64,000 bases of DNA. Source: a virus. Lineage: Duplodnaviria; Heunggongvirae; Uroviricota; Caudoviricetes. The position numbers and the translations under genes were made by a program. The stretch spans positions 64,097 to 128,096 of the IMG/VR virus record IMGVR_UViG_3300018080_000113; one strand, written 5' to 3'. This document shows positions 7,164 through 61,133 of the stretch, in pieces. Below the pieces are notes generated by a model that saw only the letters and a list, made by a program, of their open reading frames with translations, ran no database searches and was not told where the DNA came from. Position 1 is the first letter of the stretch, and each line of letters begins with the position of its first letter.

Positions 7164-10100
7164 CTAAAAGTTCGAGCGCGAGGGTCGGTCTCTTCTAATT
7201 GTTTGGCGACCTCGCCTGCGCTGCAAAAACTCTGCAATATGTCTATCTTCATCATCAGTATCCCACCCAGGTTTATTTGTGCGAATACCATTTAAGCCAT
7301 TATCCACTCTTGCTGGCAAAGATGCAAACAGTTGTTCTTCAACAACAGTCTTTTGGAACCCTCCATCTAGTCTTCGTTCTTGAGGAGTAGAAACTCTTTC
7401 TTTGGATAGATTTTTGTCTGGAGAACCTTGGTTTTTTAATGTTCTTGGATCTGGAACAGACGCAACCTGTGTATTAACATTTCTAACATGCAAACTATCA
7501 AACTCTAACTGAAATGCAACAACAGCAAGATTAAAAGCATCAAGCCTATGGTCTAGTGCCTTAGGATCGTCAAGACCATAAACAGGAACTTTAGTTGGTG
7601 TAATTCTTTCAATTATATAACTTCTAAGTTGTTTTTCAAGAATATGATCATGAGACGAAAGCCTAATAGAGTTTTGTTCAAACAATCGTACAGAGGCATT
7701 AACCATAAATGGTTTTGCAGGAGACTTCTTTCTTTGTGCACTTACAGGATCACGAGTCTCAATCGAAGCACCTGCATCGTATTTCTTTAATATTCTTAAC
7801 AAATTAGCAGTATCTCTGTCTCCCTCTTTCTTCATGTTCTCATAGGCAGTTTTACGAAGAATCTCATAGTTGGTACTGCCATTACCTGCGTCAATATATA
7901 CAAAATGCGGCTTCCATTTACGATTCATTTCAAGTAGCTTAGATACGCCTGTAAGCTGTGTAAACTCAGAACGCTCAACATGTAAAGAATCCACTACCTG
8001 GAACATGTTTGTAAATGGATTAAACCCTAATACAACAATTTCAGTACCATGTTTCTCATTCCAGTCAGTTCCAATTGTGTATTTCCATGATGGGTTTCTT
8101 TGAATAGTTTTATATTCATAGTCCACAAGAGATCGATCAATATAAGATGGTTTATAAACACCAGCTTCTGCAGTTCCCCATTCGGCCAAATATTCGTGTT
8201 TCCAGTCTTCTTCTGTAAACTGTGCTTTCTCAGCCTCAACCTGACGCCACCAAGGAAGAACTTTATAAGTAAAGTGGAATTCTTTATAGTGCGGGTTCTC
8301 CTCACATAATGTATAGTATGGAGTCTTAAATCCTGTTGGGGTCGAGAAGCCTACAAGAGATGTGTGAGGCGACGTGTGTAGAATCGGCAAGATACCACTT
8401 CGAAGAGCAGTCTCGTCGATATAATCCATTTCCTCACAATTGTGAGTAAACAAACCGCCAGCAAAAAACCTATTTGCTGCTCCAGATGTTAAATTGTAAA
8501 CATCAACTGGCTCGTTACAAAACCTAACATTCTCTCTGATAACCGGAAGAAGAACATAGCCGTCTTTCCATGTTAATTTTTCAACCAACTCATAAGGAGT
8601 TAATAGTCTTTCAGAATATAATTTATCATATAGTTTCTTATGATATTTTATCGTAGACTTAGGAATATTAAGACTTAAAGATATTTTACTTGAAGTTCCA
8701 ACCTGAAGTCTAATTAAACGATTTTTTATCCATCTTTCTGATTTCCAATTTGATTCGTAGTGCCTATATAGCTTCCATGAATTAGCAAGCCTGGTTTTCT
8801 CTGCACTATAACAAAAACCAATTTTCTCAACAAAAGAATCAATGTTTTCTTTTGAGTTATTGATAGAAAGATATCCAACCCATCGATCTTCGTCAGCAAG
8901 TTGTTTAAAAGAAATTGAATATTTTATGTCTATTTCATCTAGCAAAGCACAAATATCAGAGAACCAAAGCTCGATCCATTCTTTTTGTTGGCTTCTCATA
9001 TTTAAAGCTAATGCTCTTGGCGTTCTATTGTTCTTTTGATATTTGACGCCTGTAGATTCAGCAGAAAACAAACCAGACAAGAAAGATGTTTTTAGACATG
9101 ACTTCCCATGTTTAATAAAACCAGGGACTCGAATTGGTTGTAAAACTTTTTTACCATCAGGGTGTAAATCTTTAAAGAACTTATAGGCATAAGAAGATCT
9201 TATCTGTGCACCAAAACCATAAATTCCTCGATCAACATTATTCATCTCTCTAGCAGAAATCTTGTGTTTCTTATCGCCAAGAGACATTAGGTCTATTTGA
9301 ACCTGTTCCAGATCTTCTGGCTGGCCAGACCATCCTACAATATTGCTAGAGATCCAGCCATCTCCATACATAAATCCTAACAATCTAGCAATTACATTTT
9401 CATACCCAAAAGTTAACTCTTTATGATAGAGAGAGACTACGACCTCTCTTGCGTCTTTGGCTTCAATGTCTTCTTTACCATTAAACAAAGGATGATCTGG
9501 AGTGCATTTGATAGTATTTAGTGCAGTAGGAACTGTGACCAAAGTGCCTTTTCTTATTCCTAGGTTTTGTATATCTCCTACGTACACTCCTTTCTCGTCT
9601 CCACCTAAAACAGTATCTTGAAGAGTTAGATCTTCAATAGGCTTAACAGAAAACTTAGATGTATTTACTAGTGTTCCTTTTGGGAAGCAATAGATATCAT
9701 CAGCATCTTGTCCACGACCTGCCAAACCTTCTTTCTTACCTTTGGCGCCACCAGCAAACCCACGTGCACGAGAACCATTACGAAGTTTAATCTCATAGTA
9801 TGGAGCCGCAACATCTCTAATAACAGAATCTTTAAGAATAGGATTAGCAGCAATAAATGCACGAATACGAGTAAAGATTTCTTCAACATGAACTTTTTGA
9901 GGGCCAGTAACAAATATCTTACGATCTGTACTAGTAAAAAGCTTAAATAAGATTTCCATACACACAGAATCAGTTTTTCCCGTTCGTCGGCCAATACGTA
10001 AAACCTTACGTCGGGATGTACAGCGAAGAACTTGTTCTTGGTACCATCTGGCTACCCACGGAAGATTGCCAGGTAATTTAGCAAATTGTTTAGCAAATTC

Positions 10101-10352
10101 AACCTTATCTCTAACAGAACGAAGAATATCTAATTGAGTATCAGTTTTGGTAGCCTTCTCCATTGGAGATACAAGTTCGTTTGAAATACCAGTACAAGGA
10201 ACCATAAAGTTCTTACCAACTGCCTGGCCTTCATAGATATGTTTTTCGTACTTTTTAATCTGTGCACGAACACATTCATGGCATTGCGGAATGACCTTAT
10301 CTACATCAAATGGTAAATTAAGATCTCTTAAGTCAGCTAATTCATCTTTCAT
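7164..10352 (-). CDS. terL: terminase large subunit interrupted by an intein (extein ~645 aa)
   Basis: Walker A VLRIGRRTGKTD. After intein removal the junction reads ...DADDIY/CEEMDYIDE (Walker B-like). A C-terminal nuclease-like region (LDHRLDAFNLAVVAF) follows. Confidence 0.85.
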   Translation of the reverse strand: MKDELADLRDLNLPFDVDKVIPQCHECVRAQIKKYEKHIYEGQAVGKNFMVPCTGISNELVSPMEKATKTDTQLDILRSVRDKVEFAKQFAKLPGNLPWVARWYQEQVLRCTSRRKVLRIGRRTGKTDSVCMEILFKLFTSTDRKIFVTGPQKVHVEEIFTRIRAFIAANPILKDSVIRDVAAPYYEIKLRNGSRARGFAGGAKGKKEGLAGRGQDADDIYCFPKGTLVNTSKFSVKPIEDLTLQDTVLGGDEKGVYVGDIQNLGIRKGTLVTVPTALNTIKCTPDHPLFNGKEDIEAKDAREVVVSLYHKELTFGYENVIARLLGFMYGDGWISSNIVGWSGQPEDLEQVQIDLMSLGDKKHKISAREMNNVDRGIYGFGAQIRSSYAYKFFKDLHPDGKKVLQPIRVPGFIKHGKSCLKTSFLSGLFSAESTGVKYQKNNRTPRALALNMRSQQKEWIELWFSDICALLDEIDIKYSISFKQLADEDRWVGYLSINNSKENIDSFVEKIGFCYSAEKTRLANSWKLYRHYESNWKSERWIKNRLIRLQVGTSSKISLSLNIPKSTIKYHKKLYDKLYSERLLTPYELVEKLTWKDGYVLLPVIRENVRFCNEPVDVYNLTSGAANRFFAGGLFTHNCEEMDYIDETALRSGILPILHTSPHTSLVGFSTPTGFKTPYYTLCEENPHYKEFHFTYKVLPWWRQVEAEKAQFTEEDWKHEYLAEWGTAEAGVYKPSYIDRSLVDYEYKTIQRNPSWKYTIGTDWNEKHGTEIVVLGFNPFTNMFQVVDSLHVERSEFTQLTGVSKLLEMNRKWKPHFVYIDAGNGSTNYEILRKTAYENMKKEGDRDTANLLRILKKYDAGASIETRDPVSAQRKKSPAKPFMVNASVRLFEQNSIRLSSHDHILEKQLRSYIIERITPTKVPVYGLDDPKALDHRLDAFNLAVVAFQLEFDSLHVRNVNTQVASVPDPRTLKNQGSPDKNLSKERVSTPQERRLDGGFQKTVVEEQLFASLPARVDNGLNGIRTNKPGWDTDDEDRHIAEFLQRRRGRQTIRRDRPSRSNF
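8439..9689 (-). mobile_element. intein (~417 aa) with LAGLIDADG homing-endonuclease domain inside terL
   Basis: N-terminal splice block CFPKGTLV starts with Cys, codon at 9689-9687. LAGLIDADG motifs are LLGFMYGDGW and FLSGLFSAES. C-terminal block FTHN is followed by Cys+1, Asn codon 8441-8439. Boundaries were checked by reverse-complement translation. Confidence 0.75.
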
Positions 10353-14292: not shown

Positions 14293-14589
14293 TTAGTCCT
14301 TGCCTTGTGTTTCTTTAATGTCTTCCATTACGCAAAGGAAGTTTTTCTCTTTTGCGAACTCATATTCTGTATCTTCGTGTTCTGTCTTTAGTCCTGTATG
14401 AGTTGGGACCATTACAATGTCTCCTGCCTTCAATAGAGAATGTTTATTTGCCTCGGGACCAAAAGAAAGAATCTCAACATATTTAATTGTCTCTTCCTCT
14501 TTGGTGACTAGTAAGATGCCAGAGTCGGTAATCTTTTCTTCTTGTTTAATGGGTTTGGTTAGAATCCATTCATTGGTCGGTTTAAGCAT
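14293..14589 (-). CDS. groES: GroES-like co-chaperonin (T4 gp31-like)
   Basis: 98 aa. Pattern ILxKPI..EEKTxSGILL...GP......AGDIVM...G matches the Cpn10 fold. Confidence 0.65.
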   Translation of the reverse strand: MLKPTNEWILTKPIKQEEKITDSGILLVTKEEETIKYVEILSFGPEANKHSLLKAGDIVMVPTHTGLKTEHEDTEYEFAKEKNFLCVMEDIKETQGKD

Positions 14590-22734: not shown

Positions 22735-23115
22735 ATGGATTCTAACAAATTGATAAGTGAAGCAGAAGCAATGTCCAGGGTACTAGATTCACTGGTAGAC
22801 AGATATCTCACACATGCTGTCGTAGAAATGAGGAAAACAATTCACAAGGCAATAGGTTTTAATGACCTAGACCAAGAAGCAAACCAAAACTTAGATGGAG
22901 CAATTTGGTCAACAATTGCCAAAATTTCAGGAGAAGAAACAAAAAAACAAGGGAAAAGATTCATTCAAGAAATGAAGAAAAGGATTCTAGAGAATCCTAC
23001 TAATGTCCCAGATTTTCTGCGTAATTCAATTAATGAACTCAGTGAAACACCAGAGTTCAAAGACAAGAATGACAATACTCCCCCACTAACGACAACCAAG
23101 GTAGAGGAAGCGTAA
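22735..23115 (+). CDS. hypothetical protein
   Basis: 126-aa ORF. Confidence 0.45.
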   Translation: MDSNKLISEAEAMSRVLDSLVDRYLTHAVVEMRKTIHKAIGFNDLDQEANQNLDGAIWSTIAKISGEETKKQGKRFIQEMKKRILENPTNVPDFLRNSINELSETPEFKDKNDNTPPLTTTKVEEA

Positions 23116-23933
23116 TGAAGGTTCTGATTATGCGAGGCATATCAGGCTCAGGCAAGAGCACATATGCTAACAACATTGCCAAACAATCTGACAAAGCAAT
23201 CATTTGTTCTGCTGACAACTTCTGGATTGATGATGTAGGCAATTACAACTTTGACCGAAACAGACTCAGTGAAGCTCATGCATGGTGCTACGCTCACTTT
23301 GTAGGAACACTAACAACTAACTATCATGACATTGTAATTGTGGACAATACAAACACTCAACTATCTGAAATAGCTCCATACATTGCACATGCCAACTATC
23401 ACAATGCAGACATTGAAATTGTTAGGTGTGTATGCCCGCATGAAGAAGCAGCTAAACGTAACGTTCATGGCGTACCTGCAAAGACTGTTGAGTCAATGCA
23501 GAAACGTATGCAATCTCTACCAAGACATTGGCCGAAAGAAACAATTGTAGAAACAGACTTGCCATTTCTGCAAAGACTAACAAACGAGTGCGAGGTAATA
23601 CAACCACTGAAACTAACAAACAAATGTGACCAATGTGACCATTGGGATTGTTGTAGTGACTGTACAGAACTAACAGGAGAAGAAATAGTTCCAGCAGGAT
23701 TCGACAGTAAACTCTGTTGGGATATCCACAAAGAACTAGATAGACTCGAAACAGGTCTAAGTGCTCAATACAAAATTACAAAAGGAAAAATAGAAATAAG
23801 TAATTGCTGGAGTAGATTTGGACCATACGACGCAGTATTGTTACTTGAATGTTTAGAGTCAATTAAAGGTGACAAAACCGACGAAGACATCATAAGAACA
23901 ATCAAAATGAATTTTGGAGGAAGCCCATTCTAA
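23115..23933 (+). CDS. P-loop kinase (polynucleotide-kinase / AAA_33-like N-domain) with Cys-rich C-terminal domain
   Basis: GISGSGKST Walker A in the first 15 residues, followed by a downstream Asp (CSADNF). Confidence 0.55.
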   Translation: MKVLIMRGISGSGKSTYANNIAKQSDKAIICSADNFWIDDVGNYNFDRNRLSEAHAWCYAHFVGTLTTNYHDIVIVDNTNTQLSEIAPYIAHANYHNADIEIVRCVCPHEEAAKRNVHGVPAKTVESMQKRMQSLPRHWPKETIVETDLPFLQRLTNECEVIQPLKLTNKCDQCDHWDCCSDCTELTGEEIVPAGFDSKLCWDIHKELDRLETGLSAQYKITKGKIEISNCWSRFGPYDAVLLLECLESIKGDKTDEDIIRTIKMNFGGSPF

Positions 23934-31322: not shown

Positions 31323-32699
31323 ATGAAATTACTTATTGTCTTGATCGGATTGTTCTTGATCATTGGATTTGCGGTATTGAAGTTCGTTATCATGCCGCTG
31401 CAAAAGAAGAAACTTAGTTGGAAAACATGGGCTGCAGGTACATGTGCAGGTCTTATCTCGTTGGTTCTTAGTGGCTCATTTTTCTATGCCGAACCAGGAT
31501 ACAGTTATCTAGTTCAGTACCCAACAGGTACTCAAATTGCAGTGACAACACCAGGTTATCATATGTATTGGTACGGTACTGTTTTGGACTTTAAGAAAGT
31601 TGTAACGGTTCGGCTTACCAATGAAAAGGATAATGATTCAGAAACTGCAACAGTCAATGATAACAGTGTAGTTGTTCGGTTTAATGATGCTGTTGTAGCA
31701 CAGATTAGTTCAAGTACTAGGTTTAGGATTCCTGAGGACCCTGCTTTGTTTAAGAAACTTGCTGTTGACTACAGGTCATTGAATAATTTGGTTCAGAGTT
31801 CATTGGTTCCAGTAACGAAAGAAGTTATTCGAAATTCAGCACGTGAGTTGTCGGCACAAGACTATGTAACAGGGCAAGGCGGTCAATTTGAACAGAATGT
31901 TCTTGATCAACTTGAGAATGGTATTGTTGTTTTGCGCATTGAAGATGAGAAGGTTCCAATTAAGGTCACTGATGCTGATGTGCCTCGTGATGTACAACTT
32001 GAAGCAGAAAATATTAAAGCTGCCATTGTACAGAAAAATACTGATCGTGGTGTAGATGAATCTAGCAGGACTTATCGTCGAGTAATTAGAGTAAAGAATG
32101 CTGACGGTTCGCTGAAACGTAAGAAGCATCCTTTGGTTCAGTATGGCATTCAAGTAACTCAATCTACTATCGAAGGAGTTGTTCCTGAGAAGAAGTTCCA
32201 AGAGATGTTGGCACACCAACGAGACGCAGCAGCACGTTCAGCAGTTGCAAGGCAAGAAGCCAAACAAGCTGAATATGAGAAACAAAAGGTTATTGCTCGT
32301 GGTGAGACTGAGAAAGCTCGTGTAAAGATGGAGCAAGAGAAAAATCAGGTTGAGAAGCTTGTGTCAGCTGAGACTCAGAAGAAGCAAGAAGAAATTCTGC
32401 TTGATCAAGCTCGTATCAATAAAGAGAGAGTTGAAGTTGAGGCCAAGGCATTGTTGACAATGGCAACTGCCGAAGCAGATGCACGTAAGGCAAAGATGCT
32501 TGCGGACGGTGCTCTTGAACAAAAACTTGATAGTTGGGTCAAGATTAATCAAGCATGGGCAGCAGCTGCCGCAAACCATCAGATGGTTCCAACCACAGTT
32601 ATTGGTGGCGATGGTGACAATCCAAGTTCTAATGATTTCATTAACTTGATGACTGCAATGTCTGCACAACAGTTGAATCTTAAACCTGTTGTGAAGTAA
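31323..32699 (+). CDS. SPFH/band-7 (HflC/prohibitin-like) membrane protein
   Basis: N-terminal TM helix, an SPFH-like core, then a long Ala/Glu/Lys/Gln coiled-coil tail (QEAKQAEYEKQKVIARGETEKARV...). Confidence 0.55.
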   Translation: MKLLIVLIGLFLIIGFAVLKFVIMPLQKKKLSWKTWAAGTCAGLISLVLSGSFFYAEPGYSYLVQYPTGTQIAVTTPGYHMYWYGTVLDFKKVVTVRLTNEKDNDSETATVNDNSVVVRFNDAVVAQISSSTRFRIPEDPALFKKLAVDYRSLNNLVQSSLVPVTKEVIRNSARELSAQDYVTGQGGQFEQNVLDQLENGIVVLRIEDEKVPIKVTDADVPRDVQLEAENIKAAIVQKNTDRGVDESSRTYRRVIRVKNADGSLKRKKHPLVQYGIQVTQSTIEGVVPEKKFQEMLAHQRDAAARSAVARQEAKQAEYEKQKVIARGETEKARVKMEQEKNQVEKLVSAETQKKQEEILLDQARINKERVEVEAKALLTMATAEADARKAKMLADGALEQKLDSWVKINQAWAAAAANHQMVPTTVIGGDGDNPSSNDFINLMTAMSAQQLNLKPVVK

Positions 32700-32966: not shown

Positions 32967-33339
32967 GGGTCTGACACGGTTTAGACTTTATTGTGACGGG
33001 TGACAATGCATGTCTCGGGGTGGGTATCACCGAGTTAAAAAGATAACCAAAACAGTAATTGGCGAAGATTACTACCCAATGCAGGCTGCTGCTTAAGCAC
33101 CTGCCGTCAACGCTAGCAAGTGTTACATAACTAGTTGAGGCGTCATTTTATGTAATTGCTCTCAAGGAGTTACCGGATGTACTTGAGAAAAGACTAAATA
33201 TCCTGTCCCTAGAATATGATTGTTTTGTTTGTTTTATCAATTATATGAGAGGGTGGCTCGGTAAAGAAAACATTCTAAACATGTGAATGATTTGCATTTA
33301 GATCAATGAAGGACCTCGGTTCGACTCCGAGCAGATCCA
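32967..33339 (+). ncRNA. ssrA: tmRNA (SsrA), one-piece; predicted tag GEDYYPMQAAA-stop
   Basis: 5' GGGTCTG pairs with 3' CAGATCC, giving a G3:U70 alanine identity pair. The 3' end is GGAC + T-arm (CTCGG TTCGACT CCGAG) + acceptor + discriminator A. GTGACGGG lies near the 5' end. An A-rich run precedes the tag frame 33061-33096, which ends GCT GCT GCT TAA. Confidence 0.7.
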
Positions 33340-33523
33340 AAATCAATGTTTTGTATTAGTTTCCAGTTTCTCTATAAGAACTGGTGGTGGAGGCGATGGG
33401 AAACCTGAGCCCTTGTCGTGAACTGGGTGCGACATAAAACAATACGGTGCGAAACCAGAGGCGAACGTCTTAATCCTCGACAGTAAAATCAGGCGTGACT
33501 ACTAGGAGAGACTAGTTCTTTAT

Positions 33524-33624
33524 ATCCAAGTAGCTCAATTGTCCCGGAATACGGATTTGGCAGAGCAACAGCAGCCTAAAAATGGCTGTTGTATGGGTTA
33601 CAGGTTCAAGTCCTGTCTTGGATA
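33524..33624 (+). ncRNA. extended tRNA-like RNA (101 nt), unresolved
   Basis: Acceptor ATCCAAG/CTTGGAT. D-arm GCTC...GAGC with a 17-nt D-loop insertion. 9-bp anticodon-like stem. T-arm ACAGG TTCAAGT CCTGT. Confidence 0.35.
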
Positions 33625-41517: not shown

Positions 41518-42384
41518 ATGTTTGATAGTCTTGGCGACCGCATGAAGAAATATGAGAAGACTGAAACAGGCAGAAAATTTATGCCTTTGCTTCCTGTAGT
41601 AGCAAGAATAGACGGAAAGGCTTTTCATACTTGGACCAAAGGACTTGATAGACCATTTGATGCTGACATGATTCAAATCATGCAGAATACTACCAAAAAA
41701 CTTGTTGAAGAAACTAGTGCTAAGGTTGGTTATACACAAAGTGACGAGATCTCTCTTGTGTTCTATTCAGATGATATTGAAAGTCAAATATTCTTTGATG
41801 GCAAAATCTTTAAGATGACTAGTGTACTTGCTAGTATGACTACTGCTATTTTCAACGAAAAAATTCTTAGTTTAGCAGGTAATTTGTACAATGATTCTAC
41901 TTGTTACGAAACAGAGACAACAAGAAGACTTAATAAAATAGTTACAAAACCAATGGCATTATTTGATTGTAGAGTGTGGCAAATGCCTACAAAGGAAGAA
42001 GTTTGTAACTATCTAGTTTGGCGCGAGCAAGACGCAGTAAGAAATAGTATTCAATCTGTAGGCCAAGCCAATTTTTCTCAGAAACAATTGCATGGTAAAA
42101 GCCAAAAAGAAATTCAAGAAATGTTGTTTCAAGAAAAAGACATCAACTGGAATGACTGCTTAATAGCTGAGAAGAGAGGAACTTACTTTCAGAAGCGTCA
42201 AGTAGAAAGGATGTTCTCTGTGAATGAACTTACAAAGCTTCCTGAGAAACATGAGGCTAAAAAGAATCCTTATCTTAAAGTTCTTCGAAATGACATTGTT
42301 ACTTTAAACATGCCTAGACTTGCTTCTATTGATAATAGGATAGAGGTTGTTTTTGATGGAGCTGAGCCAGTTATAAAAAGGTAA
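41518..42384 (+). CDS. Thg1-like tRNA-His guanylyltransferase / 3'-5' polymerase (TLP)
   Basis: N-terminal RIDGKAFHTWTK and metal-binding YTQSDEISLVF are the Thg1 hallmark blocks. Confidence 0.65.
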   Translation: MFDSLGDRMKKYEKTETGRKFMPLLPVVARIDGKAFHTWTKGLDRPFDADMIQIMQNTTKKLVEETSAKVGYTQSDEISLVFYSDDIESQIFFDGKIFKMTSVLASMTTAIFNEKILSLAGNLYNDSTCYETETTRRLNKIVTKPMALFDCRVWQMPTKEEVCNYLVWREQDAVRNSIQSVGQANFSQKQLHGKSQKEIQEMLFQEKDINWNDCLIAEKRGTYFQKRQVERMFSVNELTKLPEKHEAKKNPYLKVLRNDIVTLNMPRLASIDNRIEVVFDGAEPVIKR

Positions 42385-43265: not shown

Positions 43266-43493
43266 ATGGGATATTGGCAAAAAGAACCTGATCTTCTATT
43301 TAGAAAAGGCATGGATATGTTTGGCAAGTTTGACTGGGAAAACTATACATACATGGGCAAAGATAAAGAAGATGCTGTTGTGACAGCATTCCTAGATGAC
43401 AATAATCTAGTAGAAATGACAATAACTTCTGCATGTGTTGGATTCTCATATACTTTTCAGAAAAGACCAAGAGTAAAAACCAATGATAATTAA
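43266..43493 (+). CDS. hypothetical protein
   Basis: 75-aa ORF. Confidence 0.45.
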   Translation: MGYWQKEPDLLFRKGMDMFGKFDWENYTYMGKDKEDAVVTAFLDDNNLVEMTITSACVGFSYTFQKRPRVKTNDN

Positions 43494-44679
43494 ATCAATC
43501 TTAGATACAGATTTATATAAACTTACGATGGGCCAAGCTATTGCCCAAAAGTTTCCTCATGCCAAAGCTCAATATAAATTCATTAATCGTGGCGGAACCA
43601 AATTTCTCCGTAGCACTGCAAGAGAGCTTAAGCAAGAAATTCAAAATATGGCAAGTCTTAAGCTTAGTGCAAATGAAAAGGACTGGCTTAGAGCAAACTG
43701 TTCATACTTCAATCCTGTTTATCTAGATTTCTTGGCAGGGTATAAATATGACCCTTCTGAAGTAGATGTTAGATTCTATAGTACATCATCAGAAGACGAT
43801 GGGTCTGATATGGCATTAGGAGATATTGATATTACAATTACAGGGCCTTGGTATCGCACTGTTTATTGGGAAGTTCCATTGATGGCAATTGTCTCTGAGC
43901 TATACAACAGGAACAGTAAACAACCTAGTTATTGTGACATTGAAACTGTTGTAGAGAAAAGCAAAACATTGACTAGCAACGAATGTTTCTTTGCTGACTT
44001 TGGTACGAGAAGAAGATTTAGCCAACAACACCATGACAAAGTAGTAAAAACTTTAGACAAACAGATGGGTACATTTGTCGGTACAAGCAATGTTCATTTG
44101 GCAATGCAATATCAAGTTAAACCAATTGGGACTCAGGCACATGAATGGTTTATGTTCCATGGTGCAAAATATGGTTATCGCGAAGCTAATAGAATAGCAC
44201 TTAAGAACTGGGTTGACGTTTATCATGGTAGTCTTGGTATTGCATTAACAGATACTTTTGGTACTGATGATTTCTTTAAGAGCTTTGGCTCAAAATATTC
44301 AAAACTATTTGATGGCATTCGTCACGATAGTGGCGACTGGAATACATTTGCAAAAACTACTATTGCACATTATTTGAAAAAAAACATTAACCCTAATACT
44401 AAAACGATTGTATTTTCAGATGGTCTTAATGTAAAAAAAGTTCTTGAAATAAATAAAGCTTATGACAGAAGAATCAAATGTTCTTATGGTATTGGCACAA
44501 ACCTTACTAACGATATTAAAGATGGAGCAAAACCACTTAATATGGTTATCAAAATGACAAGCTGTAAGCCTTATGAAGAACATAATTGGTTGCCGGTTGT
44601 TAAGTTGTCTGACGACAAGGGCAAACATACAGGCGCTTCTGAAGAGATTGAATTGTGTAAAAAAACATTGAGGCTATAA
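43483..44679 (+). CDS. pncB: nicotinate phosphoribosyltransferase
   Basis: Blocks match E. coli PncB: ILDTDLYKLTM, GPWYRTVYWEVPLMAIVSE, DFGTRRRFS, GTSN, IGTQAHEWF, GIALTD, RHDSGD, FSDGLN, YGIGT, KLSDDKGK. Confidence 0.85.
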   Translation: MIIKSILDTDLYKLTMGQAIAQKFPHAKAQYKFINRGGTKFLRSTARELKQEIQNMASLKLSANEKDWLRANCSYFNPVYLDFLAGYKYDPSEVDVRFYSTSSEDDGSDMALGDIDITITGPWYRTVYWEVPLMAIVSELYNRNSKQPSYCDIETVVEKSKTLTSNECFFADFGTRRRFSQQHHDKVVKTLDKQMGTFVGTSNVHLAMQYQVKPIGTQAHEWFMFHGAKYGYREANRIALKNWVDVYHGSLGIALTDTFGTDDFFKSFGSKYSKLFDGIRHDSGDWNTFAKTTIAHYLKKNINPNTKTIVFSDGLNVKKVLEINKAYDRRIKCSYGIGTNLTNDIKDGAKPLNMVIKMTSCKPYEEHNWLPVVKLSDDKGKHTGASEEIELCKKTLRL

Positions 44680-44946
44680 ATGAAATCTACTGATATTTTA
44701 ATGAAGTCACCAGGTTATATAGTAACTGGATTTACACGAAACACAAACGCAAGAGGATATAAAGAATTAGAAATAGACGATATTATTCAATTCTCTATTA
44801 GAGTAAGAACAAATTCACGTTATTCTTCAGATGTAATTATATCTTGTCTTAACAAAGGTATTAGTTGGGCAAACAATCAGGGTTTATTTGCATTAAATAT
44901 TGGAATATTGGAACTTAAGGAGATTGATGATGGAATATTGCTATAA
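44680..44946 (+). CDS. hypothetical protein
   Basis: 88-aa ORF between pncB and nadE. Confidence 0.4.
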   Translation: MKSTDILMKSPGYIVTGFTRNTNARGYKELEIDDIIQFSIRVRTNSRYSSDVIISCLNKGISWANNQGLFALNIGILELKEIDDGILL

Positions 44947-45715
44947 GATTGCAGAATGGATTAAAGATTATTTTCAAGAAACAGGGAAAACAAAAGCTAT
45001 TGTTGGTATTTCAGGTGGAATTGATTCAGCAGTTGTGGCTTCTCTTTGTGTAAAAGCTTTAGGCAAAGAAAATGTTCTTGGTGTAATTATTCCTATTGAA
45101 TCATCAATTTATGATGGCTTAGATGCTATGAAAGTAATAGAAAAGCTTGGTATTGATCATATTGAAGTTCATGGTGATTCTCCATTTTATAAAACGTGGC
45201 AAAAGATTATTGATTCTACAATCGGTCTTGCTAGAGAAAATAAACTTATAAAGAATCACAAACTAGTCAAAGGAAATGTTAAAGCACGCATAAGAATGAC
45301 AACTCTATATGCTATTTCTGAAATGACTAACGGGTTGGTTGTTGGCACTACAAACAAGACAGAAGCTCTTATTGGATATGCCACCAAATATGGTGACGGC
45401 GGTGTTGATATTGAACCAATCATGGATTATTACAAAACAGAAGTTTTTGAAATGGCACGTTATCTTGATGTTCCTGTGAGTATTATCAATAAGAAACCAT
45501 CGGCAGGACTGTGGGACGGACAAACTGATGAAGATGAGCTTGGAATGTCATATGCAGAAATTGATATGGCCCTTAAGCTTATCAAAGGCGAACCTTTCTA
45601 TGGCGTACAAAAAACACAGTCTTGGTCTTTGTTTAAAGAAACAGTTGCTAAAGTTGAGAAACTTATCCAAACAACAGAACATAAAAGAAATCTTCCTCCG
45701 TATTATAAGAGGTAA
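44927..45715 (+). CDS. nadE: NH3-dependent NAD+ synthetase
   Basis: PP-loop SGGIDSAV, TTNKTEALIGYATKYGDGGVDIEPI and AGLWDGQTDEDELG. Track start 44900 is TTG; first ATG is 44927 after AAGGAG. Confidence 0.85.
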   Translation: MMEYCYKIAEWIKDYFQETGKTKAIVGISGGIDSAVVASLCVKALGKENVLGVIIPIESSIYDGLDAMKVIEKLGIDHIEVHGDSPFYKTWQKIIDSTIGLARENKLIKNHKLVKGNVKARIRMTTLYAISEMTNGLVVGTTNKTEALIGYATKYGDGGVDIEPIMDYYKTEVFEMARYLDVPVSIINKKPSAGLWDGQTDEDELGMSYAEIDMALKLIKGEPFYGVQKTQSWSLFKETVAKVEKLIQTTEHKRNLPPYYKR

Positions 45716-45730
45716 CAATAAGGATTCAAA

Positions 45731-46270
45731 ATGAAAACTCTAATCGTAGTAGACGCACAAAAAGATTTTATGCCTGGTGGAAACTTAGCAGTCCCAAATG
45801 GTGATGAAATTGTTCCATATATTAATAACATTAAAAAGAACTATGATTTAGTTATTTGGACAAAAGATTGGCATCCACAGAATCATTGTTCTTTCTTGGC
45901 ACAAGGTGGTATTTGGCCTGAACATTGTGTTCAAATGAGTCAAAATGCTGCATTGCATGGCAATCTAGAAGTTCTTGGTGAAGACTATGTTGTTACTAAA
46001 GGATGCAATCAAAAGTTTGATAGCTATAGTGCATTCTTTGACGATGGCGGAACCGATACGGGCTTAGAATCTTTACTCGTTAGCAGAGGAATAACAGAGA
46101 TTGACATCTGTGGCTTGGCACTTGAATATTGCGTAAAATTTACTGTATTAGATGCGTTGAAACTTGGACACAAGGTAAATCTACTTACGTCTGGTTGTCG
46201 TGGAATTGACAACAATGATGTTGCTTCTGCTTTAACAGAAATGAAAACTAAAGGTGCAAACATTATCTAG
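45731..46270 (+). CDS. pncA: nicotinamidase (isochorismatase family)
   Basis: LIVVDAQKDF (catalytic Asp), DWHPQNHCSF (metal site), VVTKG (Lys), DICGLALEYCV (Cys). Confidence 0.8.
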   Translation: MKTLIVVDAQKDFMPGGNLAVPNGDEIVPYINNIKKNYDLVIWTKDWHPQNHCSFLAQGGIWPEHCVQMSQNAALHGNLEVLGEDYVVTKGCNQKFDSYSAFFDDGGTDTGLESLLVSRGITEIDICGLALEYCVKFTVLDALKLGHKVNLLTSGCRGIDNNDVASALTEMKTKGANII

Positions 46271-46279
46271 GAGTACAAA

Positions 46280-46822
46280 ATGACAATAATAGGTTTGCTG
46301 GGCGGTACGTTTGATCCTCCTCATCTTGGTCATCTTGCAGTAGCAAGAATAGCATTGTGGACTGGCGATATTGATGCAGTATGGATGCTTCCTTGTTGGG
46401 AACATGCTTTTGGCAAAAAACCAAAAGACTTTCATCATAGAGCAAGTATGTGTCAACAGATGGTAGAAGAAGAGAAAGATGTTCTTGTTTGTACCGATGA
46501 GGCAGAAATTAAATCAAAATGCGCAATGGACATTCTGACCTATATTATAAAGAAAAATCCTGACAAAGAATTTAGATTGATTCTTGGTACTGATAATTAC
46601 TGGAAAATGGATCAATGGGAAGATAGGCCTGGAGTTTATAAACTAGCAAGGCCTCTTTGGGTCGAACGCTCTGGCGAGTCTAGAATTCCTGAAAGGGTTT
46701 GTTTTCTTAGTAATGACATTAGTTCTACAAAGGCAAGACAAGCTCTTACTGATGGAGAGCCAGTAAATGAAATGCTGCACGATAAAGTAATTAAATATAT
46801 TGTGCAAAATAAGGTTTATTAA
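46280..46822 (+). CDS. nadD: nicotinate/nicotinamide mononucleotide adenylyltransferase
   Basis: GGTFDPPHLGHL nucleotidyltransferase motif and C-terminal ISSTKAR. Confidence 0.8.
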   Translation: MTIIGLLGGTFDPPHLGHLAVARIALWTGDIDAVWMLPCWEHAFGKKPKDFHHRASMCQQMVEEEKDVLVCTDEAEIKSKCAMDILTYIIKKNPDKEFRLILGTDNYWKMDQWEDRPGVYKLARPLWVERSGESRIPERVCFLSNDISSTKARQALTDGEPVNEMLHDKVIKYIVQNKVY

Positions 46823-47053: not shown

Positions 47054-47126
47054 GGGCGTATGGTGAAATTGGATATCATAAAAGATTTCTACTTTTTTGT
47101 TCTGGGTTCAAATCCTAGTGCGCCTG
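47054..47126 (+). tRNA. tRNA, anticodon TTC (Glu-like); weak D-stem and U37
   Basis: Acceptor GGGCGTA/TGCGCCT. Anticodon arm AAAAG-ATTTCTA-CTTTT. T-arm CTGGG TTCAAAT CCTAG. Confidence 0.45.
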
Positions 47127-47131
47127 CTGAA

Positions 47132-47204
47132 GTCTGCGTGGCCAAATTGGTACGGCATCTGACTGCAAATCAGAAGATTGTGGGTTCAACTCCCTCCGCA
47201 GACT
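47132..47204 (+). tRNA. tRNA-Cys (GCA)
   Basis: Acceptor GTCTGCG/CGCAGAC. Anticodon arm TCTGA-CTGCAAA-TCAGA. T-loop TTCAACT. Confidence 0.75.
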
Positions 47205-47224
47205 CTAAAAGATAAGGAGTTGGC

Positions 47225-48007
47225 ATGTATGAAGACAGGAAAAGACAAAATAAACGTTGGCATCAAGCACTATTAACAAGTAGACTTAATGATCAACGTG
47301 TGTTAAATCCTAAACTGAATCATGGTTCTATTTTAGTTTTGTCAGGACCTAATCCAGAAGAAGCTATTAAGTACTATGCCAAGTACAAAATGTATAGAAA
47401 CTGTATTCTTGTAGAGAGCAATAGAAAAACATTTGCTGAAGCTTATTTTAACTTCGACCCACTAGGTCGCCACATAGAGCTGATACGTGACGACATTTTT
47501 GTTGCAGCCAAAAGACATTCAAATGAGTTAAGAGGCATAGATTTTGATTTTTGTACTACGTTAAAAGAAGAATTAGTTAAAAAGATAGCAATTACAGTAG
47601 CAAGGTTAGAAAAACCTTGTATTTGGTTTAGAGTTACTAGTTGTCATAGAGGAATCAAAGGAGAAAAACTTAGAGAGAAACAAAATTCGATAGTTGAAGC
47701 TATTAAGAAACTTTCTGATTATCAACTAGTAGATGAAGCATTTGTAAACTATAGGGACAAGATCCCAATGAATACATGGCAAGTAGTCATGCGAAACAAC
47801 AGAAAGATGGAGGACGGAACAATGCGTACACTTAGAGAAATGACACATGCAGAGAAAGACATGGCTCGTGCACTCGTAGACCGAAAATACGACCAAAAAC
47901 AAAACACTAACTATAGCGATGACGACATTGCTCGTGTACTTCAAATGAGCCCTTACTCTGTATCGGCACTGAAAGCACATGTGACAATGCGTGACCAAAA
48001 TAACTAG
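47225..48007 (+). CDS. hypothetical protein with C-terminal helix-turn-helix (sigma region-4 / LuxR-like)
   Basis: 260-aa ORF ending ...DDDIARVLQMSPYSVSALKAHV. Confidence 0.5.
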   Translation: MYEDRKRQNKRWHQALLTSRLNDQRVLNPKLNHGSILVLSGPNPEEAIKYYAKYKMYRNCILVESNRKTFAEAYFNFDPLGRHIELIRDDIFVAAKRHSNELRGIDFDFCTTLKEELVKKIAITVARLEKPCIWFRVTSCHRGIKGEKLREKQNSIVEAIKKLSDYQLVDEAFVNYRDKIPMNTWQVVMRNNRKMEDGTMRTLREMTHAEKDMARALVDRKYDQKQNTNYSDDDIARVLQMSPYSVSALKAHVTMRDQNN

Positions 48008-48014
48008 TGAGAGT

Positions 48015-56675: not shown

Positions 56676-56863
56676 AACTTATTAATTATAAATGTAATAA
56701 ATGTGGTCGTGAAATTGAACGTATATGCCAAGATAGCGAATGGAAAAATATGGTAGATAATGAGGAATATGTTGATCTTGGTTTTTGTGAATGTGGTGGT
56801 ACCTTAAAGAGATTTAACTTTAAGAACAACAAACAAAACTGGAAATTTTTCGATGAGCGCTAA
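56672..56863 (+). CDS. zinc-ribbon small protein
   Basis: CNKCGR ... CECGG. Confidence 0.4.
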   Translation: MKLINYKCNKCGREIERICQDSEWKNMVDNEEYVDLGFCECGGTLKRFNFKNNKQNWKFFDER

Positions 56864-57113
56864 AGAAAAACCAGTCAATTATGAAAAAATATATCAGCAT
56901 CTAGAAGACAATGGATGGGAAAACAATTGGTCAGACTGTCGAGGCAGACAATATATAAAAGAATCTATTGTGATTGATGTAGATAAAACAATTCAAAAAG
57001 TTAGTTTTAGTACAGGTTGGTCCTGGGAAGAAGAAAAACTTAATGTAAATTTTTCAGTACCATTCAAGGATTTTAAAAAAAACTTTACAAAAAATAGATT
57101 TACTTTTTGCTGA
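56853..57113 (+). CDS. hypothetical protein
   Basis: 86-aa ORF. Confidence 0.4.
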   Translation: MSAKEKPVNYEKIYQHLEDNGWENNWSDCRGRQYIKESIVIDVDKTIQKVSFSTGWSWEEEKLNVNFSVPFKDFKKNFTKNRFTFC

Positions 57114-57148
57114 TTTGTTAAGAACATATAGCGAAAGTGATATCTAAA

Positions 57149-57222
57149 GGGCCTGTAACTCAGCTGGTCAGAGTACCCGATTCATAACCGGGTAGTCCTT
57201 GGTTCAAGTCCAAGCGGGCTCA
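57149..57222 (+). tRNA. tRNA-Met/Ile2 (CAT)
   Basis: Acceptor GGGCCTG/CGGGCTC. D-stem ACTC/GAGT. Loop TTCATAA. T-arm CTTGG TTCAAGT CCAAG. Confidence 0.8.
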
Positions 57223-57234
57223 ATAAGGAACAAA

Positions 57235-57432
57235 ATGAGCAATATTCTTAATGTAGTAACAAAATCTTTAGGAGATCCTGGTATCAGCCAAGCAAGACTT
57301 ATATCTATACTTGAAGATGCCAAAAGAGAAGATAAAGAAGGGCTTAGTAAGCTTTTAAAAAACTTTTATGCAATTGAACTTTCTAAAGGTGTACCGTCAA
57401 GTAGATATGATTTACTTAAGGGATATATGTAA
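57235..57432 (+). CDS. hypothetical protein
   Basis: Internal ATG of ORF 57199..57432, placed after the tRNA. Confidence 0.4.
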   Translation: MSNILNVVTKSLGDPGISQARLISILEDAKREDKEGLSKLLKNFYAIELSKGVPSSRYDLLKGYM

Positions 57433-57435
57433 TGA

Positions 57436-57509
57436 GGCCACATAGCCCAATTGGCAGAGGCAAGGGACTTAAAATCCCTAAAGTAAGAGTTCGAATCTCT
57501 TTGTGGCTA
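57436..57509 (+). tRNA. tRNA with anticodon TAA on a short-variable-arm (class I) scaffold
   Basis: Acceptor GGCCACA/TGTGGCT. Anticodon arm AGGGA-CTTAAAA-TCCCT. T-arm AAGAG TTCGAAT CTCTT. Confidence 0.65.
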
Positions 57510-57525
57510 TAAAGGAGTAAAACTA

Positions 57526-57708
57526 ATGGCAAGAGATAATTGTATAGCTAGTTTCATATTGAGATATGGAAGTATTGATGGCGCTCATCATAAGCAATGG
57601 GTTTTGGATCAAGTCTTAAAGGTTTTGCTTGAAGACAAATACGAAGAAACGATTAAAGAATATGAATCTGATGGAGAATACGAGTGGAACAAAGGAATTG
57701 CACCATAA
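57526..57708 (+). CDS. hypothetical protein
   Basis: 60-aa ORF. Confidence 0.35.
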   Translation: MARDNCIASFILRYGSIDGAHHKQWVLDQVLKVLLEDKYEETIKEYESDGEYEWNKGIAP

Positions 57709-57719
57709 AGGAGAATAGC

Positions 57720-58415
57720 ATGAGAGAAAACGAAGACCTAAAAGAAACTGAAGCTAAAACGGAAGAAGAAAAACCTAAAAGTGCAGTCGAAGCTCTAAAA
57801 GAAGCTTTCGATGACTATGTAGTTGAGTCTAGTCATCTTGTTTCGTACCCTTCAGCAATGCTTAGAACAAAATGTAAAGAAGTAAATATTGAGAAAGATG
57901 ATTCTGATTATTCTTATCATGAAGTTATTGATGATATGACAAAATTTCTTTTTGATTTTAATGCTCTTGGTCTTGCTGCTAACCAAGTTGGACATGATAT
58001 GCGTATTGTTGGTATTTGGGCCGACCAAAAGAAACTTCCTCTCTTTATGATTAATCCTAAAATCACAGACAAGGGCGGAACAATGATTGGTCCAGAGGCT
58101 TGTTTGAGTTTTCCTGGTGTTTTAGTTGATGTTAAGCGTTCAGCATCAATTACAGTAGAATATTACGATACTGACGGCGAGAAACATACTGAAGATTACT
58201 TCGGCAAAGAAGCAATCGTTATTCAACATGAAATTGATCATCTTGAAGGTATTACTCTTGTCCAAAGTGCCTCTAGGGTTTATCGAAGTAAAATCATGAA
58301 AGACCTAAAAGCTGGTAAGCGAAAGATGGTTAAATACGCAAAACTTCAAAAGAAAACAAGAAAACTTGAAGAATTTCTCAAAGAAGCTGACCGGCCAGCA
58401 GCAGAGGCTACATAG
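57720..58415 (+). CDS. def: peptide deformylase
   Basis: GLAANQVG, EACLSFPG and QHEIDHLEG are the three PDF motifs. ATG 57720 after AAGGAG. Confidence 0.75.
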   Translation: MRENEDLKETEAKTEEEKPKSAVEALKEAFDDYVVESSHLVSYPSAMLRTKCKEVNIEKDDSDYSYHEVIDDMTKFLFDFNALGLAANQVGHDMRIVGIWADQKKLPLFMINPKITDKGGTMIGPEACLSFPGVLVDVKRSASITVEYYDTDGEKHTEDYFGKEAIVIQHEIDHLEGITLVQSASRVYRSKIMKDLKAGKRKMVKYAKLQKKTRKLEEFLKEADRPAAEAT

Positions 58416-58440
58416 ACCTGTGATAGAATTACCATAGGAG

Positions 58441-58713
58441 GTGATTCGTGTGGCATTTGAAAAAACCCCATTAGCAAGTAAAAAGTTTATTGCATTTTTC
58501 TTCTCTCTATTAGTGCTAGCAGGTGTTTTAGTAACAGCATTGCTTACTCAAACATTCGGTTGGGCAATGGTTGCTTTTATGAGTGTAGGAATCCTTGGTG
58601 TATGCACCTTGGCAATTGGATACATTCTGCCTCAGGCAGCATTAGATAAGTTTATAAGAGGAGTAGCTGGATTGAAAGGGACATTTGATGATTCTAGAGA
58701 ACATACTGAATAA
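58441..58713 (+). CDS. membrane protein (GTG start; the true start may be the GTG at 58450)
   Basis: AGGAGG at 58435-58440; two TM helices. Confidence 0.4.
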   Translation: MIRVAFEKTPLASKKFIAFFFSLLVLAGVLVTALLTQTFGWAMVAFMSVGILGVCTLAIGYILPQAALDKFIRGVAGLKGTFDDSREHTE

Positions 58714-59071
58714 GTTTAAAACTTATCCTTGGTGGAAGAAAGCTTTGTTATTTGTTCCTTTTCTTCTTGCTGTAATTGTTGTGGCATTATTCGTAACAAA
58801 TAAAGATTCTGTTAGTAACGACAAGCTAGTTAGTCATAGTAAAGGAAAAACTGATAAAGAGATTGATGATTTTGCTAAATCTATGAAAAGCTTGAAAAAG
58901 CAACGTAAAGAAATAGCTAAGAAACGAGAAGAAATTAGAAAGGAACTGACAGATGCAAAAGATGATTATATTTCTGTTGCTAATGACATTGACAATGCTG
59001 ATTCCAACAATCTCGATGTCGTCGCCCAAAAACTTAGAGCTGACGCCGCCAATAACAGACACGGATCTTGA
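58685..59071 (+). CDS. membrane protein with coiled coil
   Basis: 128-aa ORF. Confidence 0.4.
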   Translation: MMILENILNKFKTYPWWKKALLFVPFLLAVIVVALFVTNKDSVSNDKLVSHSKGKTDKEIDDFAKSMKSLKKQRKEIAKKREEIRKELTDAKDDYISVANDIDNADSNNLDVVAQKLRADAANNRHGS

Positions 59072-59453
59072 TTTAGATATTGTTTTACCGCTGGAAATCA
59101 AACATACAGTAGACGGACAGCTTCTGTATTCTTATATTCCTGACAGTTTTAGACTGGTCCTTAAGATCTATAAAAACTACACAGTATTAGCAGAAGCACA
59201 TGTTCTTCTAATGAATGATTTAGACACTCTTGAAAAAGATAATGCTTTGCTTCTTAATGGATTGAGTAAGTGTATTGTGGTCTTAGAGAAAACAGATGAA
59301 GACAGAGAGTTTATTTACGATCTTAGAGAATCTGATCTTGCACAAATGGAAAACAATAAACGGAAACAAACAATCAAAACAGTTTTGTTTACTAGCGGTG
59401 GAGTAGCCGTAGGAGTTGGTATTGGTATTTTAATTGGTATTTTTGCTATATAA
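58953..59453 (+). CDS. membrane protein (start uncertain; overlaps upstream ORF)
   Basis: 166-aa ORF with N- and C-terminal hydrophobic segments. Confidence 0.35.
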   Translation: MQKMIIFLLLMTLTMLIPTISMSSPKNLELTPPITDTDLDLDIVLPLEIKHTVDGQLLYSYIPDSFRLVLKIYKNYTVLAEAHVLLMNDLDTLEKDNALLLNGLSKCIVVLEKTDEDREFIYDLRESDLAQMENNKRKQTIKTVLFTSGGVAVGVGIGILIGIFAI

Positions 59454-59468
59454 AAACGAGGTATAAAA

Positions 59469-59648
59469 ATGAAAAATGGCGATACGGTTTTGGTAATGTT
59501 GTCTGATGGCAAATGGCAAAAAGGAGTAGTTAGTATAGTACTTAAAAAATTGGTAGATGGCATTAATCTAATGACACTAGACCAATTTGACGGTGCTCTT
59601 ACGATCAATTGGAATAATATTGTATGTGTTAAAGAAGTAAAGAAATAA
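59469..59648 (+). CDS. small hypothetical protein (59 aa)
   Basis: ATG 59469; not in the ORF track because it is under 60 aa. Confidence 0.3.
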   Translation: MKNGDTVLVMLSDGKWQKGVVSIVLKKLVDGINLMTLDQFDGALTINWNNIVCVKEVKK

Positions 59649-59743
59649 ACAAAATCATGTTATCTGTTGTTATGTGCTTGTTATTATTGTTTATTTCTAT
59701 TATCATTTTTATTATGACATGTTCATTGAAAAAATAAATTTCT

Positions 59744-59815
59744 AGCGGAGTCGACGAGTGGTTCAGTCGGGGGTCTCATAAGCCCCATACGTGGGTTCGA
59801 ATCCCACCTCCGCTA
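59744..59815 (+). tRNA. tRNA-Met (CAT), second copy
   Basis: Acceptor AGCGGAG/CTCCGCT. Anticodon arm GGGGT-CTCATAA-GCCCC. T-arm GTGGG TTCGAAT CCCAC. Confidence 0.75.
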
Positions 59816-60015
59816 CTTGAGTTGTTATAGTAGCAATCATCATATAGTAGGCCTAAAATGTATGATGCCCATAAACTATAATAGTTTCGGTGTTTTCACG
59901 ACTCACGAAAAGATTTGTAAGAACCTAGGAATCTTACAATGAATTCAAAACACCATCTAGGGAAGGTATACCGTAACTGGTAGCGGGCGGGGCTGATATC
60001 TGATATAATACCTAT

Positions 60016-60501
60016 ATGAGAAAACGTACAGGAATTATATCTACAATATCAACTGAGAAACTAGAACAAATAGTTTTAAGTTCTTTGTCGTTAAAAGACG
60101 TACTAAGAAAACTTGGTTATGGTCCTAATTCAGGATCAATGTTTTATAGGCTTAAAGAGAGACTAGAGAAAGAAAATATTTCGACAATTCATTTCTCAAA
60201 GTGTCTATCTATAAAAGCTCAGAAATATAAGCTTTGTGATATCTTAGTAAAAGACTCCAAATATACTAATATATGGAGACTAAAGAAACGGTTAATAAGC
60301 GAAAAGATTCTTGAAGAAGTTTGTTCTATCTGTGGACTAAAACCATGGTGGAATGGTAAAGAATTAAAACTTCAACTAGATCACATTAATGGTATTTCAA
60401 ATGACCACAGATTAGAAAATATTCGACTTGTTTGTCCAAATTGCCACTCTCAAACAGAAACATTTTGTGGTAAAAACAACAGTCGATACTTGGCGGATTA
60501 G
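60016..60501 (+). CDS. HNH homing endonuclease
   Basis: QLDHINGISNDHRLENIRLVCPNCHS HNH motif; its 3' end abuts tRNA-Tyr. Confidence 0.65.
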   Translation: MRKRTGIISTISTEKLEQIVLSSLSLKDVLRKLGYGPNSGSMFYRLKERLEKENISTIHFSKCLSIKAQKYKLCDILVKDSKYTNIWRLKKRLISEKILEEVCSICGLKPWWNGKELKLQLDHINGISNDHRLENIRLVCPNCHSQTETFCGKNNSRYLAD

Positions 60502-61127: not shown

Positions 61128-61133
61128 TTGTAT

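Follow-up and report, generated by a model that had tools for sequence, protein, structure and literature searches.

Genes for transfer-messenger RNA (tmRNA, ssrA) are known from several bacteriophages. They have been described in eight Bxz1-like mycobacteriophages and in Bacillus phage G, and a form reduced to the tRNA-like domain occurs in DS6A (PMC4131195, Hudson et al. 2014). A tmRNA is carried by 402 of 18,146 phage genomes (2.3%), some of them marine phages with a two-piece form (PMC9004378, Buchholz et al. 2022), and tmRNAs as well as SmpB occur in huge phages assembled from metagenomes (PMC7162821, Al-Shayeb et al. 2020). Wildcat expresses its tmRNA at a very high level (PMC7474061). 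Catalogues of phage tmRNAs exist, but we found no functional study of one in the literature. Here we analyse a tmRNA gene in a 64-kb stretch of tailed-phage DNA (IMG/VR record IMGVR_UViG_3300018080_000113, positions 64,097 to 128,096; hereafter the window). Its tag ends in a hexapeptide, PMQAAA, that is shared by three phage lineages.

ARAGORN calls a single tmRNA in the 64-kb window, a one-piece gene on the + strand at 32967–33339. It runs from G1 (32967) to the discriminator A; gene positions 95–130 are the coding part, with the tag GEDYYPMQAAA followed by a stop. When the whole window was compared with all Rfam families, the one-piece model RF00023 matched 32967–33342 over its entire length (model positions 1–374 of 374) with 97.3 bits (E = 9.5e-37; gathering score 47 bits), which is far beyond chance. 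The two-piece (permuted) form, RF04321 and relatives, was rejected: the permuted model reaches 19.1 bits against a gathering score of 47, over a partial stretch, whereas the standard gene order matches fully. Both methods agree with a first-pass annotation, made by a model from the letters alone, on the RNA, its coordinates and its tag. All sequence-level features of a one-piece tmRNA and of the phage-encoded class were found. Our results support that earlier interpretation as essentially right, and we consider it quite likely, judging from sequence, that a large, uncultivated tailed phage here carries a functional ssrA gene.

The gene resembles the tmRNAs of the cultured phages Bxz1, Catera, Wildcat and G in being a complete ssrA, carried by a large genome of lytic type with many tRNAs and presumably served by host factors. 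It differs from them in its tag family, in its virus lineage (judged by the portal, only about 30% identical to those of the three jumbo phages named below) and in having no nucleotide match to deposited phages (blastn with the tmRNA, megablast with the 12 kb around it). Like the tmRNAs of huge phages (PMC7162821), it was detected by ARAGORN in an uncultivated large phage with a load of translation-related genes; unlike the huge phages with SmpB, its 64 kb yielded no SmpB, and tag conservation was not analysed in that paper. The two-piece tmRNAs of Melnitz and the pelagimyophages (PMC9004378) are likewise phage-encoded and have been proposed to maintain hijacked translation or to tag proteins, but they are circularly permuted and linked to a glutamine riboswitch, whereas the window tmRNA is a standard one-piece molecule. 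The ssrA of DS6A (PMC4131195) is also a phage-borne tmRNA derivative; it lacks the mRNA-like domain and is a candidate inhibitor, whereas the window gene keeps a conserved tag frame.

Homologous phage tmRNAs were reached by searching with the neighbouring SPFH protein, then through the contigs encoding its homologues, and then by a scan with a degenerate pattern of the tag end; the loci are labelled L071 and so on. L071, whose SPFH protein is 75% identical to that of the window, carries a tmRNA at 4556–4904 (104 bits) with the tag ATNYTPMQAAA, and L072 holds a 5′-truncated variant of it. In Joint Genome Institute (JGI) metagenomes, L088 combines the tag ATNYTPMQAAA (112 bits) with the gene order of L071, the tmRNA of L092 (117 bits; contig of 183,681 bp) encodes VENYEPMQAAA, and L085, a contig of 1.6 kb, is identical to the 5′ part of the window gene. 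The sole tmRNA from the tag-end scan of IMG/VR, L081, again has the tag VENYEPMQAAA and lies on a viral contig of 124,752 bp. The tmRNAs of L081 and L092 score 117 bits, and those of L071, L072 and L088 score 104–112 bits. Three lineages are thus represented, the window tmRNA being 65% identical to L071/L088 and 58% to L092.

As in bacterial one-piece SsrA (RF00023), the window RNA combines a G3:U70 acceptor stem, a T arm, a D-loop-like GGNUUNGAC and a long helix 2; all its elements given below are on the + strand. The acceptor stem pairs GGGUCUG (32967–32973) with CAGAUCC (33332–33338), as read from the sequence and found by RNAalifold. The G:U pair that had been noted at the alanine-identity position is there: G32969 (G3) faces U33336 (U70). 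Across the four full-length sequences aligned with RNAalifold, G3:U70 is invariant while acceptor pairs 4–6 covary. The GGAC and T arm expected at the 3′ end were found at 33311–33331 (CUCGG-UUCGACU-CCGAG; covariance model and RNAalifold), with a T loop of the GUUCGAnUC type preceded by GGAC and no anticodon arm. All five T-stem pairs covary among the lineages. The 3′ CCA is not encoded, the sequence continuing ...CAGAUCC-A-AAA.

One detail of the first-pass annotation has to be corrected. It had given GTGACGGG as the conserved motif near the 5′ end; this string is present at 32993–33000 but lies inside helix 2 and is not conserved in the relatives. Since the covariance model aligns the conserved D-loop-like motif GGAUUCGAC of tmRNAs to GGUUUAGAC at 32978–32986, GTGACGGG is not the homologue of GGAUUCGAC(GGG). 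Within the D-loop-like motif, GGUUU-GAC is invariant across the four homologues. Helix 2 itself is formed by 32986–33013, which includes GTGACGGG, and by 33275–33311 (CUAAACAUGU...CAAUGAAG), placed by both the covariance model and RNAalifold, with several compensatory pairs.

The mRNA-like part also follows the bacterial plan. Within about 370 nt, a first pseudoknot precedes the resume codon, U and A stand at −5 and −4, three further pseudoknots are present, and a short tag frame ends in Ala-Ala with its UAA in the loop of helix 5. The internal frame had been described as preceded by an A-rich run, and such a run together with GUAAUU (33055–33060; U at −5, A at −4), invariant in all homologues, indeed precedes the GGC at 33061. 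We take this U and A to correspond to U85 and A86 of E. coli, which act in frame setting. The frame at 33061–33096, as called by ARAGORN, reads GGC GAA GAT TAC TAC CCA ATG CAG GCT GCT GCT TAA, that is, GEDYYPMQAAA and a stop. An alternative frame starting with GCG (AKITTQ...) was rejected, being long and not conserved in L071. Unlike bacterial SsrA, the window tmRNA is phage-encoded, has no encoded CCA and resumes on a Gly codon (GGC), and its tag ends in QAAA after a conserved Pro-Met, in place of the usual A-L/V-A-A.

The eleven-codon frame is conserved in all three lineages, as GEDYYPMQAAA in the window, ATNYTPMQAAA in L071/L088 and VENYEPMQAAA in L092. Its first five residues vary (G/A/V, E/T, D/N, Y and Y/T/E), and only Tyr4 is kept among them. 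PMQAAA is invariant despite at least five synonymous codon changes (CCA/CCU, CAG/CAA, GCU/GCA/GCG, GCU/GCG), part of these third-position changes being matched by compensatory changes in the opposite strand of helix 5. Such a pattern appears to be the expected outcome of selection on the translated peptide.

We then asked where else such a tag end occurs. A set of 185,579 genomes, one per bacterial or archaeal species, contained no match to Y-x-P-M-Q-A-A-A-stop, written as TAY NNN CCN ATG CAR GCN GCN GCN TAA, a pattern that needs the Tyr, the TAA and the exact PMQAAA, so that near-identical tags are missed. Throughout the metagenome and viral collections, every pattern match that proved to be a tmRNA lies in a phage context or is a fragment of the window phage. 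The string PMQAAA is also absent from the searchable literature. On these scans, the tag appears to be restricted to phages and absent from bacterial genomes.

What such a tag would do can be read in two ways. Terminal Ala-Ala-COO- is the main determinant for ClpXP, and other degrons ending in Ala-Ala are ClpXP substrates too (PMC7652416). Because the phage tag keeps this terminus, its simplest reading is an ordinary degron of the ClpXP type with an unusual upstream part. A second reading, which we hold to be possible though unlikely, accepts that trans-translation works and makes the tag a phage-specific signal that reprograms quality control rather than supplementing it. Tagged fragments might then meet a different protease or adaptor, or be degraded more slowly or with other kinetics, or leave ClpXP capacity free and avoid queueing for it. 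The empty species-genome scan, the confinement of the tmRNA matches to phage contexts and the silence of the literature all speak for such a signal, as does a C-terminal hexapeptide that stays invariant across tmRNAs only 58–65% identical. Yet a near-identical host tag would have escaped the strict pattern, the terminus still carries the dominant ClpXP determinant, and among the genes nearby there is no candidate for a phage protease or adaptor. Were this second reading true, the phage clade would run its own branch of trans-translation and actively reprogram bacterial protein quality control, instead of merely topping up tmRNA.

The remaining body of the RNA can be folded as a tmRNA, including the resume-codon context, in the window and in two homologous phage tmRNAs. 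By script search, four pseudoknots (PK1–PK4) can be drawn at equivalent places in the window, L071 and L092, with different sequences. PK1 (33014–33048) consists of CUCGG/CCGAG and GGUAUC/GAU(A)ACC; its first stem covaries, being UCCGG/CCGGA in L092, and the sequence of its second stem differs in each lineage. The helix 5 hairpin (33081–33104), which holds the UAA stop (33094–33096) in its loop, corresponds to RNAalifold columns 116–144 and shows two compensatory pairs. PK2 (33112–33156) consists of GCUAG/CUAGU and GUUACAUAA/UUAUGUAAU. This second stem, of 9 bp in the window, was reached by 25 of 2000 shuffles and covaries, GUUACAUAA/UUAUGUAAU being replaced by AUUACAU/AUGUGAU in L071 and by UUCUCAU/AUGAGGA in L092.

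PK3 (33160–33203) pairs UCUCAAG with CUUGAGA, a first stem of seven perfect pairs, and GGAUGU with AUAUCC, a second stem that is weak alone (465 of 2000 shuffles reach it). Its architecture recurs in L071 and L092 with other sequences. PK4 (33214–33272) consists of AUAUGAUUG/CAAUUAUAU and UGUUUU/AAAACA; relative to its relatives, the window copy has a U-rich insertion of about 29 nt, and, in so A/U-rich a sequence, its second stem cannot be distinguished from chance pairing. Good support exists for the first stem of PK1 and the second stem of PK2. For the second stems of PK1, PK3 and PK4 the support is the conserved architecture, because alone they cannot be told from shuffles.

A full set of structural parts is not what one would expect of a decoy, a molecule that titrates SmpB, alanyl-tRNA synthetase (AlaRS) or stalled ribosomes and inhibits host trans-translation without its tag being meaningfully translated. 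A model for such a role exists in DS6A, whose molecule is little more than a tRNA-like domain; molecules like it are strong inhibitors of tmRNA and may act by titrating SmpB (PMC4131195). The window, moreover, has yielded no phage SmpB. We nevertheless regard a decoy as very improbable here. The gene is full length and keeps helix 5, PK1–PK4, the resume context and the stop codon, and the role is disfavoured because the six C-terminal tag residues are kept through synonymous substitutions, which only selection on the translated peptide would explain.

At the level of the whole RNA, 26 of the 70 RNAalifold consensus pairs show at least one compensatory double change, and the consensus recovers the acceptor stem, helix 2, the first stem of PK1, helix 5 and the T arm. 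L071 and L088 are 98% identical, and of the eight positions at which they differ, six belong to three compensatory double changes in the T stem. Selection appears to act on both the RNA structure and the tag peptide. The guanine-cytosine (GC) content of the tmRNA follows that of the genome in which it resides (0.416 and 0.387 in the window, 0.544 and 0.543 in L092), which argues for long residence in phage genomes. The gene is a complete ssrA inside a bona fide phage genome, with phage genes on both sides, and not at a prophage junction. A passenger without a phage role, be it a host ssrA captured recently, the remnant of an attachment site or a chimera of the assembly, is the least probable explanation of all: ssrA is a frequent integration site of temperate phages, which then carry pieces of it (see PMC9004378), and posterior probabilities are moderate over the first ~60% of the RF00023 alignment, but the gene is complete rather than a 3′ fragment, a Pfam scan of ~70 open reading frames (ORFs) in the window found no integrase, independent assemblies place the gene between phage genes, its homologues occupy the same neighbourhood in a related lineage, its GC content has come to match each phage genome, long-term selection is evident from compensatory evolution, and its tag is in no bacterial genome of the species scan.

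We return to the functional phage tmRNA as the preferred reading; several points weigh against it. Taken singly, the second stems that the window copy forms in PK1, PK3 and PK4 do no better than shuffled sequences. The resume codons GGC (Gly) and GUC (Val, in L092) are less common than GCN, and the discriminator of L071/L088 is U, not A. The tag ends in Gln-Ala-Ala-Ala instead of the usual Ala-Leu-Ala-Ala, so that recognition by a host protease is assumed. No recognisable sigma-70 promoter or intrinsic terminator was seen near the tmRNA in a scan that is itself uninformative. Neither SmpB nor a CCA-adding enzyme was found in the window by the Pfam scan of about 70 of its ORFs and by tblastn with SmpB sequences, the 64 kb being at most half of the genome. 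Function also hinges on compatibility with the SmpB and AlaRS of the host.

No copy of the phage tmRNA, in the window or in the relatives, encodes CCA. The RNA probably depends on host SmpB, AlaRS and CCA-adding enzyme; since the window is without SmpB and a CCA-adding enzyme, either host factors or genes in the other half of the genome are needed. In the sister lineage, a CCA-adding enzyme (PolyA_pol + HD, 443 amino acids), a tRNA (tRNA-Arg UCU in L088) and the tmRNA follow one another without a break on one strand, at 3101–4904 in L071 and at 2784–4587 in L088. This arrangement suggests a co-transcribed maturation unit. Both loci are flanked by homologues of a 650-amino-acid protein of the window (53% identity) and of the SPFH protein (72–76%).

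From what is established about trans-translation we infer a route of expression, charging, SmpB use, tagging, proteolysis and phage benefit as follows. The tmRNA would be transcribed during infection, RNase P would trim its 5′ end, and the 3′ end would be trimmed and receive CCA from a host enzyme or from a phage enzyme encoded outside the window. Host AlaRS would charge the RNA with alanine via G3:U70, and host SmpB and EF-Tu would deliver it to ribosomes stalled on broken or stop-less mRNAs. Translation would resume at GGC and add (A)GEDYYPMQAAA, with release of the ribosome at UAA. The tagged fragment would pass to a protease that reads the conserved PMQAAA, most simply ClpXP via the terminal Ala-Ala. 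The benefit to the phage would probably be extra capacity for ribosome rescue as damage to mRNA and tRNA rises, through RNA decay induced by phage or host or through defence nucleases. Such a benefit fits the other translation-maintenance and RNA-repair genes of the same genome. That the phage manipulates ribosome rescue or tagging, as proposed in the first-pass annotation, is a hypothesis.

As for the host, the bacterial host earlier deduced from the tmRNA is independently supported by the peptide deformylase gene of the phage. The named best matches of the phage NAPRTase and SPFH proteins belong to Bacteroidota, at 42–53% identity. The closest bacterial SPFH homologue is 61% identical, and two other matches are in metagenome-assembled genomes binned as Planctomycetota and Polyangiales. 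Shine-Dalgarno motifs (AGGAG/GGAGG) precede 20 of the 63 genes (32%, against a background of 3.5%), and such high use is atypical for Bacteroidota. Tags that begin with GE may be typical of Bacteroidota. The evidence on the host points in different ways, and the tag-end and SPFH scans of the species genomes both came back empty.

Further searches for relatives gave the following. Neither the T-arm/acceptor string nor the PK1 motif had an exact match in IMG/VR, and a tag-independent pattern (Ala-Ala-stop + UGCCGU + GGCGUCAU) found in IMG/VR only the already known L081. SPFH-based locus searches of IMG/VR and of the species genomes gave no confirmed relatives. No tmRNA lies within 10 kb in the phage-like SPFH relatives L073, L076 and L077 or in the bacterial one, L074; nor does one occur in the 17–21 kb fetched for L094 and L095, which share a gene module described below and were reached through NAPRTase. 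Of 68 loci reached through the neighbouring YspA/SLOG gene, the 60 scanned by ARAGORN contain no tmRNA and are therefore not syntenic relatives. Pattern matches in the metagenome loci L084, L086, L087, L089–L091 and L093 and in the viral loci L078–L080, L082 and L083 are not tmRNAs. Four loci, L085 (Ga0180434), L092 (Ga0180430), L094 (Ga0180437) and L081 (IMG 3300017990), come from samples of one JGI project series, which spans the window phage, the VENYEPMQAAA lineage and a third relative sharing the NAD/RNA-repair module (L094). A literature search for the sample accessions had no matches.

The window belongs to a metagenomic contig of 126–140 kb (ENA ERZ27256796 k141_1934064, with a JGI copy), and independent assemblies show the same gene neighbourhood. 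It encodes a portal protein at 1758–4001 (−; phrog_9232, E = 4e-51), about 30% identical to those of the jumbo phages Bacillus 0305phi8-36, Moorella MTATph1 and Acinetobacter ME3, and a large terminase at 7164–10352 (−). The terminase ORF has 1062 amino acids, of which the profile covers only residues ~640–957; a long extension at the N terminus, or an insertion such as an intein, may be present. Between the tmRNA and the ORF of 60 codons that precedes it are 12 nt, and the SPFH/Band-7 gene (31323–32699) ends about 270 nt upstream of it. Downstream of it, about 680 nt without ORFs lead to the YspA/SLOG gene.

The tmRNA had been said to sit beside tRNA-like RNAs and RNA-repair genes. The first part stands for one directly adjacent element at 33524–33624 (+), while the RNA-repair genes are 8–19 kb away. 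This element, 185 nt downstream of the tmRNA, scores 39.5 bits with the Rfam tRNA model and is not called by ARAGORN. Its cloverleaf has a 7-bp acceptor stem, a normal T arm, an extra D-arm hairpin and a 9-bp anticodon stem with the loop CCUAAAA; its minimum free energy is −38 kcal/mol (z = −4.3), and it may represent an unusual tRNA or a mimic of one. No unusual structure is seen in the 181 nt that separate it from the tmRNA (z = +0.39).

Eleven tRNA genes lie at 47054–61206, none of the 11 encoding a 3′ CCA. Genes of RNA-repair style occur on the + strand at 41518–42384, 52168–53478, 23115–23933 and 54847–56197; the set comprises a Thg1-like tRNA 5′-nucleotidyltransferase, an RNA ligase with a PHA02142 OB domain, an AAA_33 kinase and two metallophosphatases, and RtcB is additionally found in L095 and in a 3300042731 contig. 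A Ro60/TROVE gene (48129–49742, +) is followed some 500 nt on by a tRNA-like RNA at 50245–50370 (+; Rfam tRNA, 52.6 bits) in which a 58-nt insertion replaces the anticodon loop, and a second, weak tRNA-like match lies at 50789–50857 (+; 29.6 bits). This layout may resemble that of bacterial and phage Ro60 with YrlA-type Y RNAs mimicking tRNA.

Four adjacent genes at 43483–46822 (+) make up a complete route of salvage from nicotinamide to nicotinamide adenine dinucleotide (NAD): NAPRTase (43483–44679), NAD synthase (44900–45715), an isochorismatase/nicotinamidase-like protein (45731–46270) and an NMNAT-type nucleotidyltransferase (46280–46822). The block is conserved in the related large phage contigs L094 and L095 and may counter an NAD-depleting defence. 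A peptide deformylase is encoded at 57684–58415 (+; E = 6e-38) and a GroES/Cpn10 at 14293–14589 (−; E = 1e-9). The ORFs between 3.9 and 42.4 kb also include those for an Hsp20 and a trypsin-like peptidase.

As a single finding, a tmRNA in a large phage is an expected type of gene. Phage tmRNAs themselves being already known, the new element is only modest: a C-terminal tag end that appears phage-restricted, is strongly conserved and is common to three lineages. Together these lineages provide a small, clean comparative set in which the structure and the tag C-terminus are both visibly under selection, and this argues that the tag peptide itself matters to the phage, not just the release of ribosomes. 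The company of the gene includes many tRNAs, a Thg1-like protein, an RNA ligase, Ro60 with a Y-RNA-like tRNA mimic, peptide deformylase, GroES and NAD salvage. It fits the view that large phages carry kits that keep translation running under RNA- and NAD-targeting defences.

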